Source of the DNA: a virus
Lineage: Duplodnaviria; Heunggongvirae; Uroviricota; Caudoviricetes
Direction: 5' to 3' (one strand)
Virus record (IMG/VR): IMGVR_UViG_2690316195_000003
DNA: 49,242 nt
Positions 39,345 through 46,100 of the stretch are shown here, piece after piece. Each line of letters begins with the position of its first letter. Position 1 is the first letter of the stretch. The notes beneath the pieces are model-generated. The model ran no database searches and was not told the DNA's origin. It saw only the letters and a program-made list of their open reading frames with translations. A program made the position numbers and the translations under genes.

Positions 39345-39596
39345 ATGTCTTTTACATTTGATAAGTCTGCTCCATTCCCCCAAAAATTTTGGGTGGACAG
39401 TATTACTGGAACCGAGTCAAAAATTTTTAGCACCTCAGGAATGCTCAATCGCGGAGGAGTAAAAATACTTGCCCAGGAATTCCACACACAGGAGCTAAAT
39501 TACGGGGCTTATCACAAACTAGAGTTGATAATGGATGCAACCCAAATTGATGAACTGATCGTTGCCCTACAAAAGCTAAAAGAAAAGATGTCATAA
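39345..39596 (+). CDS. hypothetical protein (antisense-embedded moron candidate)
   Basis: 83-aa ORF with strong ribosome-binding site aaaggagg before the ATG; on the opposite strand to all neighbouring early genes. Confidence 0.4.
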   Translation: MSFTFDKSAPFPQKFWVDSITGTESKIFSTSGMLNRGGVKILAQEFHTQELNYGAYHKLELIMDATQIDELIVALQKLKEKMS

Positions 39597-39899
39597 TCAC
39601 CCCCTAAAAATTACGTGGCGCAGCGGTTGAGCTTTGCTGTAGTCGATCTCATCGCCATACTCAATATCAAGAGCTTGTCCCTGCGCCAGTTCCATCCACC
39701 GAATGTGTTCTGCGGCTTTTTCTTTATCTTTGATATTGATGAACAACAGCGTTGACGAGGGATACCCGTTAACAAGATGGCGATGCAGAGAGAGTCGTAT
39801 GGCATACCAGGCAACATTTCGGGCTATACGCTGAAGCAATGTTTCGCCTTCCAGTGTTTTAAGTCGGTATTTTTTCAGTTCATATTTTTCCATCACCAC
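39597..39899 (-). CDS. hypothetical protein
   Basis: 100-aa ORF starting 7 bp after the YdaT-like gene stop; its stop abuts the stop of the convergent 83-aa gene. Confidence 0.35.
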   Translation of the reverse strand: MVMEKYELKKYRLKTLEGETLLQRIARNVAWYAIRLSLHRHLVNGYPSSTLLFINIKDKEKAAEHIRWMELAQGQALDIEYGDEIDYSKAQPLRHVIFRG

Positions 39900-39905
39900 A
39901 TCACC

Positions 39906-40328
39906 TTAATGAACAACAACAGAATCGCCGGACGAACCACCGCCGCTGAAATGCGCTTTCCGGTAAACGGCCTGGACTGCATCATCATGCGCATCAATTG
40001 CCGTACTTAACGCTTCCTGCGCCGCCAGTAATGCACGGCGTTCCAGGGTATCGAAGATGCAGAGTCGGTGACGCAACTCGCGCGGAAGGATTGCCAGAAT
40101 TGCTGGGATCAGCTTCTGAATTTTTTCTCTTTGCGTTTTCGTTTCACCTTTCAACCAACGGTGATAGATATTCTGCTGATTGTTCCAGTCCTTGCCTGGA
40201 ACCAGGGGCAATTCGCCGCCCCCCTGGCGCAGATATTCTTCAGTAATTGCATTGGCTACCCATGCCTGCCCTTTTTCGGCTGCCAGGGCAAACAACACTG
40301 ATTCGATGTGCTCATGCTTGATTTTCAT
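39906..40328 (-). CDS. YdaT-like protein (Rac prophage CII-position protein)
   Basis: N-terminus MKIKHEHIESVLFALAAEKG...; 140 aa; immediately downstream of the Cro-like gene. Confidence 0.55.
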   Translation of the reverse strand: MKIKHEHIESVLFALAAEKGQAWVANAITEEYLRQGGGELPLVPGKDWNNQQNIYHRWLKGETKTQREKIQKLIPAILAILPRELRHRLCIFDTLERRALLAAQEALSTAIDAHDDAVQAVYRKAHFSGGGSSGDSVVVH

Positions 40329-40350
40329 GAATCATTTGCCTCTTGATGTT

Positions 40351-40647
40351 TCAGGTATGATCAAATGAGGATTTGTTACTGTCATTTAGTTGCTTCACTG
40401 ACATATTCTGCGAACAACATGCCGAACGTCGTAAATATGACCAGTCAATATCAGGACGAAGCTCTTCGCACAGAACCTCACCTCTTGTTGCTCGTTCAAT
40501 TGCTGGACATCTCTCGGCAGGCAATTGACGTACCCCTTTGATCCATTGATTTACGCTTGGAGGTGATACACCTAAAAGCCTAGCCATTGCTGATTGCCCA
40601 CCGACAACAGCACAAGCTTGCTTGAATGAATAGTTCTCTTTTTTCAT
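40351..40647 (-). CDS. Cro-like HTH regulator (YdaS-like)
   Basis: 98-aa protein with helix-turn-helix (ACAVVGGQSAMARLLGVSPPSVNQWIKG); divergent from the repressor gene. Confidence 0.6.
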   Translation of the reverse strand: MKKENYSFKQACAVVGGQSAMARLLGVSPPSVNQWIKGVRQLPAERCPAIERATRGEVLCEELRPDIDWSYLRRSACCSQNMSVKQLNDSNKSSFDHT

Positions 40648-40675
40648 CGAATGAACTCCAAAAACACACAGAAAT

Positions 40676-40755
40676 ATTAGGCGACGCCTAACATAAATGT
40701 CAATAGGCTATGCCTAATGCGATAAAGGTAGGGATTGCCTAATGCAATGAGCATA
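40676..40755. promoter_or_regulatory. operator cluster in the divergent promoter region (OR-like)
   Basis: Palindromes TTAGGCGACGCCTAA and TAGGCTATGCCTA plus a third partial site, between the Cro-like and repressor genes. Confidence 0.55.
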
Positions 40756-40770
40756 GGAGAATATTAAGCA

Positions 40771-41247
40771 ATGCTTAGTGGTAAAGACTTAGGCCGAGCG
40801 ATAGAGCAGGCCATTAACAAAAAAATCGCATCGGGATCCGTCAAATCAAAGGCGGAGGTCGCACGCCACTTCAAAATCCAACCACCATCAATTTATGACT
40901 GGATTAAGAAAGGCTCCATAAGTAAAGATAAACTTCCAGAATTATGGCGTTTCTTTTCTGATGTTGTTGGTCCAGAGCATTGGGGGCTTAACGAATACCC
41001 CATACCAACCCCCACCAATTCAGATACAAAAAGTGAACTTTTAGATATAAACAACCTTTATCAAGCAGCCTCTGATGAAATAAGAGCGATTGTAGCTTTC
41101 CTGTTATCTGGAAATGCTACAGAACCAGATTGGGTTGACCACGATGTTCGCGCCTACATAGCAGCGATGGAAATGAAAGTGGGTAAGTATCTGAAAGCTC
41201 TAGAATCTGAACGGAAAAGCCAGAACATCACAAAAACTGGAACTTAA
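40771..41247 (+). CDS. racR: prophage repressor (RacR-like)
   Basis: 158-aa protein with N-terminal helix-turn-helix (MLSGKDLGRAIEQAINKK...AEVARHFKIQPPSIYDWIKKG); divergent from the Cro-like gene; flanked by operator palindromes. Confidence 0.65.
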   Translation: MLSGKDLGRAIEQAINKKIASGSVKSKAEVARHFKIQPPSIYDWIKKGSISKDKLPELWRFFSDVVGPEHWGLNEYPIPTPTNSDTKSELLDINNLYQAASDEIRAIVAFLLSGNATEPDWVDHDVRAYIAAMEMKVGKYLKALESERKSQNITKTGT

Positions 41248-41320
41248 ACTTATATGGTCTGACGGAAAACTCCTGGATTCCGTTATTTAACCCCCCATCA
41301 CTTTCTCCTGTCGCCATCAC

Positions 41321-41385
41321 CTATTAGGTTACACCCAAAACATTAGGCATAGCCTATTGACAATCAATTAGGCATTACCTATAGT
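41321..41385. promoter_or_regulatory. second operator cluster (OL-like)
   Basis: ATTAGGCATAGCCTAT is the reverse complement of the site at 40704-40719; an additional partial copy is adjacent. Confidence 0.45.
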
Positions 41386-41554
41386 TCCAGCATACCACCC
41401 ACCCCGCCCCACAGAACGCCGGGCAATACTTCGAGTTACCAGGCAGTGGTAAGGGGTTAAGTAGCCAGCCCGAGGCGTATGAACATGACGGCGGGATTCA
41501 AATTTTGCAGTGCAGCAGTTAGTTCCGCCACCCGGCGTTAAGGGGAGAGATAAG

Positions 41555-41689
41555 ATGGTGCATTACGAAGTAGTTCAGTATTTGATGGATTGTTGCGATA
41601 TCACTTACAGCCAGGCTGTACAGGCTCTACGCAGCAACGACTGGGATCTCTGGCAGGCAGAAGCCTCTATCCGCAACAACAAAATGTGA
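41555..41689 (+). CDS. small early protein (44 aa)
   Basis: ATG preceded by aggggagaga ribosome-binding site; MVHYEVVQYLMDCCDITYSQAVQALRSNDWDLWQAEASIRNNKM. Confidence 0.3.
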   Translation: MVHYEVVQYLMDCCDITYSQAVQALRSNDWDLWQAEASIRNNKM

Positions 41690-41699
41690 GGTGCGAAAA

Positions 41700-41852
41700 A
41701 TGCAAAAAATCGACCTCGGCAATAACGAATCCCTGGTGTGCGGCGTGTTCCCCAACCAGGATGGAACGTTCACCGCCATGACGTATACCAAAAGCAAGAC
41801 ATTCAAAACTGAAACGGGCGCACGTCGCTGGCTTGCCAGAAATACTTGCTAA
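41700..41852 (+). CDS. small early protein (50 aa)
   Basis: ORF starting 10 bp after the previous stop; MQKIDLGNNESLVCGVFPNQDGTFTAMTYTKSKTFKTETGARRWLARNTC. Confidence 0.3.
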   Translation: MQKIDLGNNESLVCGVFPNQDGTFTAMTYTKSKTFKTETGARRWLARNTC

Positions 41853-42260
41853 TCCATTATTTGGATTAATTCAATATTCTCGCTGTAGGGGTATAGCAGA
41901 AACCACCAAAGCCCGGAGGTGGTGAAATAAAACCGGGCACAACACGAAGTCGCATTTCCGATATCCATAAAGAGTCGGTCTTGTCTGTTAAATTTAAATG
42001 GTGGGAGTGCGCCTCCGGTTGTGGATAACAACACTGCTGTGTGTAGTCTTGGCGGCATCAGTTTTTTCTTGAAGTTCGACTGATGTCCGCCCTTTTTAAA
42101 GTGAATTTTGTGATGCGGTGAATGCGGCTAAGCGCACGCGGCACAGTTAAAAGTCATGTTAGTCCTTATTGGTTTGGGTGGGAAAGCCGACTGTAATTGT
42201 TAACTGGTTGCAGTCACCTGGAGGCACTAGGCACCGCATCAACAAAGTTCATTTGTAAAA

Positions 42261-42494
42261 ATGGAGATAATTATGATTGCACATCACTTCGGAACTGATG
42301 AAATACCACGTCAGTGTGTGACTCCTGGTGACTATATTCTTCATGAAGGCCGGACATATATTGCCTCGGCAAACAATATTAAAAAGCGAAAACTTTATAT
42401 TCGTAACCTGACTACAAAAACATGCATTACTGACTGCATGATTAAAGTCTTCCTCGGTCGTGATGGTTTACCTGTAAAGGCGGAGTCATGGTGA
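42261..42494 (+). CDS. hypothetical early protein
   Basis: 77-aa ORF; overlaps the next gene via ATGGTGA. Confidence 0.35.
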
Positions 42495-42664
42495 TGACTA
42501 AGAAAATAAAATGTGCTTACCACCTTTGCAATAAAGAAATTGAAGAAAGCAAAAGTATTAAAAGACCACTTCATTTCATGCGTGGAGTTATCCCAACGAC
42601 GGAAATGAAAAAATATTGTAGTGAAAGTTGTGCCGAAAAAGACCAGATGGCACACGAACTTTAA
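42488..42664 (+). CDS. small Cys-rich (zinc-ribbon-like) protein
   Basis: 58 aa with Cys pairs CAYHLC and CSESC. Confidence 0.35.
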
Positions 42665-42738
42665 TTAACTGACTATTCGAAACTGAATTTATGCCAGCAA
42701 TGGCAGGGATTCGCTCAACCTTAATTAAGGAGAAAAAC

Positions 42739-43014
42739 ATGATTACCAATTATGAAGCCACTGTTGTAACTACCGATGACATTGTTCACGAGGTTAATCT
42801 GGAAGGAAAGCGTATTGGCTACGTGATTAAAACAGAAAATAAAGAAACCCCATTCACTGTGGTTGATATCGACGGTCCATCAGGCAACGTAAAAACACTT
42901 GATGAAGGTGTCACAAAAATGTGCCTGGTTCACATCGGAAAGAATCTGCCCGCAGAAAAAAAAGCCGGATTTCTGGCAACTCTGATTGCAATGAAATTAG
43001 GCGGTGAAATCTGA
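42739..43014 (+). CDS. hypothetical early protein
   Basis: 91-aa ORF with strong ribosome-binding site aaggag before the ATG. Confidence 0.4.
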   Translation: MITNYEATVVTTDDIVHEVNLEGKRIGYVIKTENKETPFTVVDIDGPSGNVKTLDEGVTKMCLVHIGKNLPAEKKAGFLATLIAMKLGGEI

Positions 43015-43115
43015 AAGAAATAGCCTGCGCCATACGCAGGCTATGAACAGTGTGTATCCGGCAAGATCATTCACTGAACAAAACGAATTTTAATCTGAGT
43101 TGAGGTTAAAAAACA

Positions 43116-46100
43116 ATGAGCACAAAACCACTCTTCCTGTTACGGAAAGCGAAAAAATCATCCGGTGAACCTGACGTCGTCCTGTGGGCAAGCGACGATT
43201 TTGAATCGACCTGTGCCACTCTGGACTACCTGATCGTTAAGTCAGGTAAAAAACTGAGCAGCTATTTTAAAGCTGTTGCCACGAATTTTCCTGTCGTTAA
43301 TGACCTGCCCGCTGAAGGTGAGATCGATTTTACCTGGAGTGAACGCTATCAACTCAGCAAAGACTCCATGACATGGGAACTAAAACCGGGAGCAGCACCA
43401 GACAACGCTCACTATCAAGGCAATACCAACGTCAACGGCGAAGACATGACTGAGATTGAGGAGAATATGCTACTCCCAATTTCTGGCCAGGAACTGCCCA
43501 TTCGTTGGCTTGCTCAACACGGCAGCGAAAAACCGGTAACGCACGTTTCACGCGACGGACTCCAGGCATTACACATTGCTCGGGCTGAAGAACTACCGGC
43601 TGTTACTGCCCTGGCTGTTTCCCACAAAACCAGCCTGCTCGACCCGCTGGAAATTCGCGATCTCCACAAACTGGTTCGTGACACTGACAAAGTTTTCCCT
43701 AATCCTGGTAATTCAAACCTGGGACTGATAACTGCTTTTTTCGAAGCATACCTGAACGCTGACTACACCGATCGAGGACTGCTGACAAAAGAGTGGATGA
43801 AGGGTAATCGTGTTTCACACATCACTCGCACGGCTTCCGGTGCTAATGCTGGCGGCGGAAACCTCACCGATCGCGGCGAAGGTTTCGTACACGATCTGAC
43901 GTCACTGGCGCGCGACGTAGCCACTGGCGTACTGGCCCGTTCAATGGATCTGGACATCTATAACCTTCATCCGGCACACGCTAAACGCATTGAGGAAATT
44001 ATCGCTGAAAATAAACCACCCTTTTCTGTTTTCCGCGACAAATTCATCACCATGCCTGGCGGGCTGGATTATTCCCGCGCCATCGTGGTTGCGTCCGTAA
44101 AAGAAGCACCAATTGGGATCGAGGTCATCCCCGCGCACGTCACTGAATATCTGAACAAAGTACTGACTGAAACCGATCATGCCAACCCTGATCCGGAAAT
44201 CGTGGATATTGCCTGCGGTCGCTCCTCTGCCCCGATGCCGCAGCGAGTAACAGAAGAAGGAAAACAGGATGATGAAGAAAAACCGCAACCATCTGGAACA
44301 ACGGCAGTTGAACAGGGAGAGGCTGAAACAATGGAACCGGACGCAACTGAACATCATCAGGACACGCAGCCGCTGGATGCTCAGTCACAGGTAAATTCTG
44401 TTGATGCGAAATATCAGGAACTGCGGGCAGAACTCCATGAAGCCCGGAAAAACATTCCATCAAAAAATCCTGTCGATGCCGATAAATTGCTTGCTGCATC
44501 ACGTGGTGAATTTGTTGACGGAATTAGCGACCCGAACGATCCGAAATGGGTTAAGGGGATCCAGACTCGCGATTCTGTGTACCAGAACCAGCCAGAAACG
44601 GAAAAAACCAGCCCGGATGTGAAACAACCTGAGGCAGTAGTGCAACAGGAACCGGAAATAGTCTGCAATGCCTGCGGTCAGACTGGCGGAGATAACTGCC
44701 CTGACTGTGGGGCGGTGACGGGCGACGCAACATACCAGGAAACATTCGATGAAGAGAATCAGGTTGAAGCTAAGGAAAAAGATCCGGTGGAAATGGAAGG
44801 CGCTGAACATCCGCACAATGAGAATGCTGGCAGCGATCCGCATCGTGATTGCAGTGATGAAACTGGTGAAGCGTCAGCTCCTGTAGCAACTGAAATCATG
44901 TGGCCGTCATATTTCGAGCCTGGCCGCTATGAAAACCTCCCGAACGAGGTTTATCACTCCGCCAACGGAATAAGCAGCACGATGCTGAAGGATGCCCGTA
45001 TCAGCCTGATGTATTACCACGGACGGCACATTGCCGGAACTATTCCGAACGAGGAAAGTGATGCACTGCTGCGTGGGCGGATCATTCACAGCTATGTTCT
45101 GGAAACGGATAAATTCGCTGATGAATATGCCATTCCGGTACCGGTTCCTGAATATGTGGTTACTACTTCTAGCGAACTGATCGCCATCATTAAAAAACAC
45201 AATGCCAGTCTGCCAGCACTGATGACACCAGAGCAGATGAAAGAGTGGATCGAAAGCTACAACAGCACTCTTATACAGCCACTGTCTGTAAGTGCCGGGG
45301 CCGAAGAAACAGGCATCCTTTACGGTTCGCTTCCGGTGGAATTTCGGCGTATTCCTGAGGGGGAAAAACACACAGCATCAGCAATGAAAGCCTGTATTAA
45401 AGAATACAACGCAAGCCTCCCTCCTCTGTTGAAAACCAGTGGAGCACGGGAGCAGCTTCTGGATCAAATTGAAACTGTAGACCCAGAACTGGCAAAAAAA
45501 GAACGTGCTAAATCTTTGCCTTACAACATCAGTGGCACAAAAGAGCAATTAACCGAAATCGCACGGAAAATTCGCCCGGAACTGGTGACACTGGAGGACT
45601 GGCAAAAACGCCAGCAAGAAGAAAATGCCGGGAAAACGTTTATCAGTCCTGAGATGTATGAACAGGCAAAAAATATTCACGCGGCACTGCAAAACAATAC
45701 CGATGCAGCAAGGCTACTCAACCACCCGGATCGCAAATCTGAAATCAGCTATTTCGGGTTTGATGAAGAAACCGGGCTGGAAATCAGGGTCCGTCCTGAT
45801 ATCGAAATCCGGCTGCCATACGAAAGCATTTGCGCTGACGTGAAGTCAGTCAGCCTCGGTTATGTGCGACAGGAACGACTTAAAGATCGCCTGCACCGTG
45901 AAATTATTGAGCGTGATTATCACCTCAGCGCCGCAATGTATTGCGATGTGGCAAACCTGGACAAATTTTTCTGGATCTTCGTCAACAAAGATGCTGGCTA
46001 TCACTGGGTGGCAGTCGTGGAAGCCTCGCAGGAACTCCTGGAACTTGGTCGACAGGAATATCGCCGGACGCTACGCCAGATAAACGAAGCCCTGGAGACA

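Follow-up and report, generated by a model that had tools for sequence, protein, structure and literature searches.

Organization of the racR locus

The DNA analyzed here (IMG/VR record IMGVR_UViG_2690316195_000003; 49,242 nucleotides, hereafter called the window) carries between positions 40300 and 41700 a segment that is 100% identical to the corresponding region of Escherichia coli EC11 and 97.7% identical to that of K-12. The EC11 copy belongs to a full-length prophage integrated beside ttcA, and the locus in the window in all likelihood serves as the immunity switch in a full-length lambdoid prophage of E. coli of the Rac type. Based on the RefSeq annotation of EC11, the 100% identical strain, and on Pfam searches, the gene order is replication genes, then ydaT and ydaS on the minus strand, racR on the plus strand, and then, also on the plus strand, a ydaG-like gene, ydaF, kilR, ydaE, racC, recE, recT, ralR, xisR and intR (Table 1). 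The genes from ydaG to intR, all on the same strand, constitute the early-left operon that the original prediction had placed downstream of the repressor gene. In the orientation of the window, the PR promoter of ydaS-ydaT reads leftward and the PL promoter of ydaG to intR reads rightward.

Protein family searches agreed with the predicted identities of the two regulators. RacR scored well above the cut-off of 200 bits for the equivalog family NF049929, and YdaS, with 36.8 bits, exceeded the gathering threshold (30.2) of the Pfam family P22_Cro. A helix-turn-helix stretch, PPS(I/V)xxWIK, is common to both proteins. In the Pfam search of RacR, the only match was a sub-threshold HTH_17, with no C-terminal Peptidase_S24 domain; since this domain was searched for and is absent, RacR is not an autocleavable repressor of the CI/LexA family. 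The hairpin just past the racR stop codon is weak (-11 kcal/mol, z-score -1.5), and its counterpart in strain B7A (ACGGGAA...TTCCCGT) has a matched insertion in both arms.

Table 1. Genes, promoters and operator sites at the racR locus (positions in the window)
Feature	Position	Strand	Evidence or remarks
ydaT, CII-like regulator, second gene of the rightward early operon	39906-40328	-	Pfam YdaT_toxin, 43.7 bits (cut-off 21); RefSeq EC11
Exchangeable immunity cassette (cro-like gene, OR, racR, OL/PL)	40335-41392		Comparison with the E. coli F9792 prophage
ydaS, Cro-like, divergent from racR	40351-40647	-	Pfam YdaS_toxin, 107.7 bits; P22_Cro, 36.8 bits
PR-like promoter of ydaS-ydaT	40674-40703	-	-35 TTGACA 40698-40703, 18-nt spacer, -10 TAATAT 40674-40679; 10/12 consensus
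OR1, TAGGCGACGCCTA	40678-40690		Exact; over spacer and first two bases of PR -10
OR2, TAGGCTATGCCTA	40704-40716		Exact; abuts PR -35; exact reverse complement of OL2
OR3, TAGGGATTGCCTA	40729-40741		1 mismatch; over racR promoter region
Fourth, weak site, TAAGCAATGCTTA	40765-40777		2 mismatches; spans racR ATG and leaderless transcription start
racR, prophage repressor, 158 aa	40771-41247	+	NCBIfam NF049929 equivalog, 245 bits; 99% identical to K-12 RacR
Hairpin (ACGGAA...TTCCGT, then TATTT), possible weak racR terminator	41260-41285	+	Fold
Conserved block CATCACCTATTAGGTT with variable right half	41313-41337		Possible degenerate third left operator TAGGTTACACCCA, 3 mismatches
OL2, TAGGCATAGCCTA	41344-41356		Exact; abuts PL -35; identical in K-12
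Predicted PL-like promoter	41357-41385	+	-35 TTGACA 41357-41362, 17-nt spacer, -10 TATAGT 41380-41385; 11/12 sigma-70 consensus
OL1, TAGGCATTACCTA	41369-41381		1 mismatch; over spacer and first two bases of PL -10
Conserved untranslated leader of the PL transcript	41392-41546	+	Common to heteroimmune lambdoid phages
ydaG-like gene, first of the leftward early operon	41555-41689	+	RefSeq
ydaF, second gene of the leftward early operon	41700-41852	+	Pfam DUF1391, 100.9 bits; RefSeq

Operator palindromes and promoter geometry

A search of the window for TAGGC-N3-GCCTA (TAGGCNNNGCCTA) revealed three exact matches, at 40678, 40704 and 41344, against 0.03 expected, and none of 100 shuffles reached three. 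Allowing one mismatch added 40729 (TAGGGATTGCCTA) and 41369 (TAGGCATTACCTA), for a total of five observed against 0.94 expected (0 of 100 shuffles reached five), with no sixth such palindrome anywhere in the 49-kb window; at two mismatches, the window-wide count was at the level of chance (12 observed, 13.6 expected). All five sites adjoin racR: the divergent region between ydaS and racR holds three, and the other two lie roughly 100 bp beyond the stop codon of racR. Half of the 14 TTAGGC hexamers in the window fall within 40677-41373. The span 40676-41385 opens with the first right-hand site and closes with the -10 box of the early-left promoter.

Palindromes had been predicted on both sides of the repressor gene, and they do lie there, although two details required correction. 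The cluster of three in the divergent region is real but comprises two exact sites and one with a single mismatch, along with a fourth, weak site; the 123-bp gap between racR and ydaS holds or touches all four (40678, 40704, 40729 and 40765). The downstream palindromes had been described as exact reverse-complement copies of the upstream ones, which is true of one pair only. Specifically, 40698-40719 and 41341-41362 form a 22-nt inverted repeat of 100% complementarity containing one site and a TTGACA -35 box, whereas the second downstream site, at 41369, copies none of the upstream sites. Farther upstream on the left-hand side, the block at 41313-41337 hardly varies in its left part among 54 Escherichia sequences but varies strongly in its right part. 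This block may represent a third left operator; the candidate TAGGTTACACCCA, at 41325, is missing from distant relatives, and only its left half is conserved in Escherichia. Pooling of 75 distinct sites from all loci gave the extended consensus ATTAGGC-N3-GCCTAAT, a 17-bp operator in which the half-site centres are about one helical turn apart.

The right-hand and left-hand promoters share a common cassette, consisting of a site, TTGACA, 6-7 nt, and a second site overlapping the -10 box. The centre-to-centre spacing is 26 bp for OR1-OR2 and 25 bp for OL1-OL2, and the distance between OR2 and OL2 is 640 bp. The PR hexamers are those of the K-12 promoter PydaS, which has been mapped by primer extension and mutagenized (PMC9638921). 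Beyond the repressor gene, the second operator cluster (41344 and 41369) overlaps the predicted PL, which reads into ydaG-ydaF-kilR-recET-xis-int. Since in each pair one operator lies at the -35 box and the other extends over the spacer into the -10 box, occupancy of either pair by RacR would exclude RNA polymerase.

Conservation of the sites in Escherichia and in distant relatives

In 54 distinct Escherichia RacR-type sequences, 6 of 60 half-site columns (10%) were variable, compared with 88 of the 245 other intergenic columns (36%; Fisher P = 4e-5, with the sequences being related and the column counts not fully independent), 7 of 18 columns in the N3 centres, and 16% in the racR coding sequence. 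The half-sites of OR1 were invariant in this set, and variants of the PL hexamers each occurred in single sequences only. OR3 is conserved in K-12, B7A and E. ruysiae, even at its mismatched base; the mismatch of OL1, a change of G to A, falls within a half-site, and seven relatives have T at this position. Between the window and K-12, all eight differences in the right-hand region are outside the half-sites. On the left-hand side the two are identical between 41337 and 41571, where the alignment ends, a segment that takes in both sites and the promoter.

Distant relatives with repressors sharing 43-66% protein identity were found in Mixta, Morganella, Proteus, an Achromobacter MAG and Pigmentiphaga. 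The right-hand cluster is present in all five, including the ATG-spanning site, which is nearer to the consensus than in the window (TAGGCAATGCTTA, 1 mismatch). All five also have one downstream pair with 25-bp spacing, in the form site-TTGAC-N6/7-site-(A/T/C)TAT, and in each of them an exact site followed by TTGAC occupies the OL2 position; a downstream pair at such spacing occurred in 0 of 2000 shuffles per locus at the five loci. The location of the pair relative to the repressor gene varies. In Pigmentiphaga it is 1.2 kb past the stop codon of the repressor gene, and the gap holds small ORFs, placed much like rexAB in lambda; in Achromobacter it directly follows a longer repressor gene.

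The repressors of Achromobacter and Pigmentiphaga consist of the N-terminal domain of RacR fused to Peptidase_S24 (51 and 56 bits). RacR residues 39-73, in the DNA-binding domain, are nearly invariant across the relatives, even where the C-terminal domain is Peptidase_S24. Since the S24-fused repressors retain both the RacR DNA-binding domain and the operator, the operator tracks the DNA-binding domain and not the rest of the protein.

No downstream pair was found at the locus of Klebsiella sp. R390. This locus, which has neither a cro gene nor any longer a PR -35 box, was rejected as a counter-example, being a decayed racR remnant. A separate observation concerns a contig inside a Nanosynbacter MAG, which is probably a misbinned E. 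coli contig.

Exchange of the immunity cassette

Comparison with a Rac-like prophage of E. coli F9792 revealed 99.2% identity up to 40334 and 98.5% identity from 41393, with unrelated sequences in between. The swapped segment extends from the ydaS/ydaT junction to the predicted start of PL, thereby enclosing both operator sets, and in F9792 the repressor that it encodes is a different one, of the HTH_3 type, as is the small HTH protein, which also differs from that of the window. The F9792 cassette has its own repeat, ATG(T/A)AC-N5-GTACAT, present in pairs 24 bp apart at both positions flanking the repressor gene. In this swap the two operator sets, and hence the immunity specificity, have been exchanged together with the repressor, and in the five distant taxa the half-sites of Rac accompany the conserved DNA-binding domain. 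The lambda-like OR/OL layout of the original prediction is supported by this co-replacement, together with the cassette shared by the two promoters, the conservation of the half-sites and the recurrence of the arrangement in distant relatives.

The PL leader and a 30-bp block at the start of ydaT flank the exchangeable cassette in heteroimmune phages. The leader is also present in DicA/DicC-type phages carrying ydfC, DicF and dicB downstream. Folding of the single sequence gave a z-score of -1.84, and RNAalifold of seven sequences predicted 33 pairs with 0 compensatory changes, the sequences being too conserved to tell. An Rfam scan of 39500-43200 at E<=1 gave no match at the operators or the PL leader; farther downstream, upstream of kilR, Rfam matched a DicF-like sRNA and an STnc100-like element.

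Relation to previous work on RacR

Few transcription factors of E. coli K-12 are essential; RacR is among them, and it has attracted intensive study since 2017. Cells do not survive the zygotic induction of Rac, and silencing of kil depends on Rho. Three GCCTAA/TTAGGC repeats were noted in the 123-bp intergenic region of K-12, to which RacR was shown to bind by ChIP-qPCR, with a gfp reporter and in EMSA, where three complexes formed (Krishnamurthi et al. 2017, PMC5700373). Subsequently, PydaS (TTGACA, TAATAT) and three racR promoters were mapped, and a RacR DNase I footprint gave the consensus (T/A)TAGGC-n3-GCCTA(T/A), with operators named O1-O3 (Wisniewska et al. 2022, PMC9638921). Our OR1 is the published O1, protected at the lowest RacR concentration, and our ATG-spanning site is O3, which lies over the ATG (PMC9638921) and is among the "four inverted repeats" of Gucwa et al. 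(2023, PMC11014345). EMSA, footprinting and reporter fusions are therefore already on record for the right-hand cluster of K-12 (PMC5700373, PMC9638921).

The K-12 Rac operators involve the same protein (99% identity), the same consensus and the same right-hand sites over PydaS, the racR promoters and the ATG. The published operator papers, however, confined their analysis to the region between ydaS and racR and the beginning of racR (PMC5700373, PMC9638921, PMC11014345), although the left-hand sequence is identical in K-12; binding and repression by RacR have been demonstrated by others only for the right-hand side in K-12. In a search of the freely accessible literature, we found no mention of the pair at 41344-41381 or of a promoter between racR and ydaG. 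The right-hand half of the switch was already established; the left-hand half is, as far as we know, unreported, yet it is exactly what the lambda paradigm predicts.

Several published data bear on the left-hand side. The genes xisR and intR are derepressed about 100-fold when RacR is lowered, and the RacR regulon beyond ydaS-ydaT, including a "racR-proximal operon ydaFG", has been called uncharacterized (PMC11014345). RNA-seq revealed a 40- to 70-fold induction of ydaF, ydaG, kilR, ydaE and racC (PMC6765115). As evidence of RacR acting on the left-hand set, these RNA-seq and qPCR data (PMC6765115, PMC11014345) are indirect. In addition, CRISPRi roadblocks on racR itself induce ydaG...intR (bioRxiv 10.64898/2026.09.06.749655). 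Because ydaG and the genes beyond it are still induced by these roadblocks, we infer that a RacR-sensitive promoter downstream of racR is required, and the predicted PL would be the obvious candidate. Derepression of the left operon on loss of RacR could be partly indirect, through YdaS or YdaT.

Judging from the match to the footprinted consensus, the geometry and the conservation, it is very likely that RacR binds the left operators and represses PL; the half-site mismatch of OL1 speaks against this. A related reading, in which the downstream sites would be bound mainly by YdaS, or by YdaS and RacR alike but in opposite orders of preference, and would serve mainly to damp early-left transcription in lytic growth and not to maintain lysogeny, seems improbable. 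It draws on the PPS(I/V)xxWIK stretch common to RacR and YdaS, on autorepression of PydaS by YdaS in K-12 (PMC9638921, PMC11879457), and on CP-933P, in which PaaR2 and YdaS both repress PL933P (PMC8630535). The sites nevertheless fit the RacR footprint consensus, and binding by YdaS is compatible with binding by RacR and would add to it rather than exclude it; in Rac, moreover, YdaS was reported not to repress racR, leaving its site preferences unclear (PMC9638921).

Even less probable is that duplication or gene conversion of the right-hand promoter region left the downstream palindromes behind as a non-functional relic, with the early-left genes controlled indirectly (YdaS/YdaT) or by read-through that starts at the racR promoters and is limited by Rho. 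The perfect inverted repeat of 22 nt does resemble a copied segment, the Rac prophage of K-12 is cryptic and decaying, and one group attributed the silencing of kil to Rho-dependent termination inside racR, reporting the terminator to be protective against kil expression (PMC4150792); such termination implies that some transcription enters from upstream. However, the pair and its geometry persist in relatives whose sites are not copies and whose flanks are unalignable, conservation of the half-sites and hexamers contrasts with variation in the bases around them, the heteroimmune cassette has its own matching pair at the same place, and ydaG...intR remain inducible by roadblocks placed on racR.

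It is extremely unlikely that the palindromes work at the RNA level, as terminator or attenuator hairpins, and not as protein-binding DNA sites. A consensus scan flagged two minus-strand segments, 40674-40694 and 41344-41356, as terminator-like stem-loops with T-rich tails, but such matches were not above shuffles (2 vs 1.4), and the stems, which close 3-nt loops, have only 5 pairs at 41344 and 9 at 40674 (3 G-C). Distant relatives keep the positions relative to -35/-10 whereas they do not keep the T-rich tails, and RacR footprints the DNA (PMC9638921). All three alternatives are weakly supported.

Comparison with lambda, CP-933P and Qin

The analogy between lambda and the Rac switch has been drawn repeatedly (PMC5917428, PMC9638921). 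Our comparison, based on textbook knowledge and on published work (PMC8630535, PMC11014345), showed that the two have in common a divergent repressor-cro pair, a repressor gene lying between the operator sets and co-directional with PL, 17-bp pseudo-palindromic operators about 23-26 bp apart over PR, PRM and PL, a leaderless repressor mRNA, and a repressor that forms octamers. They differ in that RacR is without the Peptidase_S24 autocleavage domain and has a C-terminal fold unrelated to that of CI (PMC11014345), in the OL-OR distance (640 bp in Rac, about 2.3 kb in lambda), in the number of clear left sites (two in Rac, three in lambda), and in the reported lack of racR repression by the Rac YdaS (PMC9638921). 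The likeness is therefore one of working and not of family membership, RacR not being homologous to the C-terminal domain of lambda CI.

In organization, the switch resembles those of two other prophages. CP-933P has a Rac-like backbone with ydaS-ydaT, an octamerizing repressor (PaaR2), a PL whose -35 and -10 boxes are identical to those of its PR, and matching operators beyond the repressor operon (PMC8630535). PL933P has been tested in reporters and is repressed by both the repressor and YdaS, whereas the left operator of Rac is predicted from its sequence; CP-933P also differs in having another repressor and operator (GTTTAGTAA-type repeats) and a toxin-antitoxin pair between the repressor gene and OL (PMC8630535). 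The Qin dicA/dicC system likewise has a short repressor that is not SOS-cleavable (Gifsy/DicA/RacR group), with operator sets at the dicC promoter and at dicBp, the PL-like promoter of dicB (PMC10448788), but its operator sequence and repressor specificity are different. In short, the Rac switch works like lambda OR/OL and is organized like those of CP-933P and Qin.

A model for the Rac switch

We propose that RacR dimers would recognize the 17-bp operator ATTAGGC-N3-GCCTAAT, and that RacR on OR1/OR2 and OL1/OL2 would exclude RNA polymerase, occluding PR and PL so that both early operons stay silent. OR3 and the ATG-spanning site, lying over the racR promoters, would mediate autoregulation of the largely leaderless racR transcript, and YdaS, with the shared recognition-helix stretch, probably competes for the same sites. 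RacR was found to be an octamer by size-exclusion chromatography, and the octamer was interpreted as four dimers on the four adjacent right-hand repeats and not as a loop (PMC11014345). The left pair offers a testable alternative, in which the octamer would bridge the left and right operator sets, 640 bp apart, with the loop enclosing racR. Such a loop is possible, with a chance that we put at rather under even. The composite view, namely that the left pair is a genuine RacR target, that the octamer bridges OR1-OR2 and OL1-OL2 over a 640-bp loop enclosing racR instead of covering the four right-hand repeats, and that the DNA-binding domain and operator form an ancient portable module, is offered tentatively and, taken as a whole, is less likely than not.

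If RacR does operate a promoter past racR, the left operators would directly explain the RacR-dependent silencing of ydaG, kilR, recET and xis/int. This promoter would supply the missing direct link to the induction of kilR, recET, ralR and xis/int (and so excision), to lethal zygotic induction and to the need for Rho. If the composite view is true, the loop would couple the silencing of ydaST, the silencing of kilR/recET/xis-int and the autoregulation of racR in one complex, and the module would be common to phages of Gamma- and Betaproteobacteria, joined either to an SOS-cleavable S24 domain or to the non-cleavable C-terminal domain of RacR. In a wider view, Rac would be another lambdoid phage built on the lambda blueprint.

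Conserved segments of the immunity region

We found that the untranslated leader following PL, the promoter of the leftward ydaG-ydaF-kilR operon, retains 76-99% identity across many lambdoid phages, in which the repressors encoded upstream of it are mutually unrelated (RacR, DicA-type and CI-type). Matches were found in 3794 of 5426 E. coli genomes, most of them due to this leader alone, with up to seven copies per genome and annotation usually absent. A scan of the leader against Rfam gave no match, and no covariation was seen when it was looked for, because the aligned sequences were too conserved. Possible roles of the leader include a Rho-loading signal, an antitermination signal or a recombination 'linker' in module exchange. 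At the other side of the region, the left edge of the exchangeable immunity cassette is marked by a 30-bp block, which is shared by phages Evi, Tritos and vB_EcoS-640R1 and looks like a second conserved junction for modular recombination.

Between racR and PL, two further elements were located (Table). The hairpin 3' of racR has in strain B7A the form ACGGGAA...TTCCCGT, that is, a matched insertion in both arms; its thermodynamic signal was weak (z-score -1.5), and it may be a weak terminator that shields the genes of the PL operon from racR transcription. In the block before the left operators, CATCACCTATTAGGTT was nearly invariant and the bases to its right highly variable, and two outward-facing, half-site-like pentamers, ACCTA and TAGGT, lie within the block. 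It was absent in the distant relatives compared (Mixta, Morganella, Proteus, Achromobacter and Pigmentiphaga), and could represent a third left operator of degenerate sequence, or else the place where another factor binds.

Downstream, the position between ydaF and kilR, which is occupied by sieB in the Rac prophage of K-12, instead contains a DicF-like and an STnc100-like element. Phage Tritos has a stretch that aligned to this part of the window, and a DicF annotated there is situated just upstream of that stretch and overlaps it.

Table. Features of the immunity region and loci of racR relatives (relatives in their own coordinates)
Feature	Location	Strand	Remarks
Conserved 30-bp block	40305-40334		Start of ydaT; ~97% identity among otherwise unrelated immunity regions
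Hairpin ACGGAA-N10-TTCCGT, then TATTT	41260-41285	+	Just past racR stop codon
CATCACCTATTAGGTT plus variable bases on right	41313-41337	.	54 Escherichia sequences
Untranslated leader, ~155 nt	41392-41546	+	Predicted PL start to just before ydaG ATG
DicF-like sRNA	42038-42092	+	42.8 bits, under gathering score 48; E = 3e-7
STnc100-like element	42094-42280	+	33.9 bits vs 47; directly after DicF-like sRNA
Rac immunity region	L006, JARKOR010000130.1, 5.2 kb		'Candidatus Nanosynbacter' MAG contig
racR homologue locus	L010, 2400-4304		Klebsiella sp. R390
Repressor	L012, 2501-3598		Achromobacter MAG; RacR-type N-terminal DNA-binding domain + Peptidase_S24
Repressor	L013, 2501-3406		Pigmentiphaga daeguensis; RacR-type N-terminal DNA-binding domain + Peptidase_S24

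racR relatives in other genomes

The region in the 'Candidatus Nanosynbacter' contig shared 99% identity at the protein level with the E. coli Rac immunity region and had all five TAGGC-N3-GCCTA sites; the contig almost certainly comes from E. coli and was misbinned into a Patescibacteria MAG. The Klebsiella locus, which looks like a remnant that has decayed or been domesticated, has kept the right-hand sites, with the -35 element of PR (the promoter of ydaS-ydaT) destroyed; neither a cro-like gene nor the downstream operator pair was found there, and the racR homologue is followed by an ORF of 386 aa, in which a type I restriction domain, HSDR_N, is present.

In the two betaproteobacterial repressors, the N-terminus was 73-74% identical to the RacR DNA-binding domain over 77 aa, the C-terminal domain being LexA/CI-like, and TAGGC-N3-GCCTA sites were present at both PR and PL, as in the window. 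Since the DNA-binding domain and the operators are shared and the C-terminus is Peptidase_S24, these loci are predicted, judging from sequence, to couple the immunity specificity of RacR with another induction domain, and to do so in a different class of Proteobacteria.
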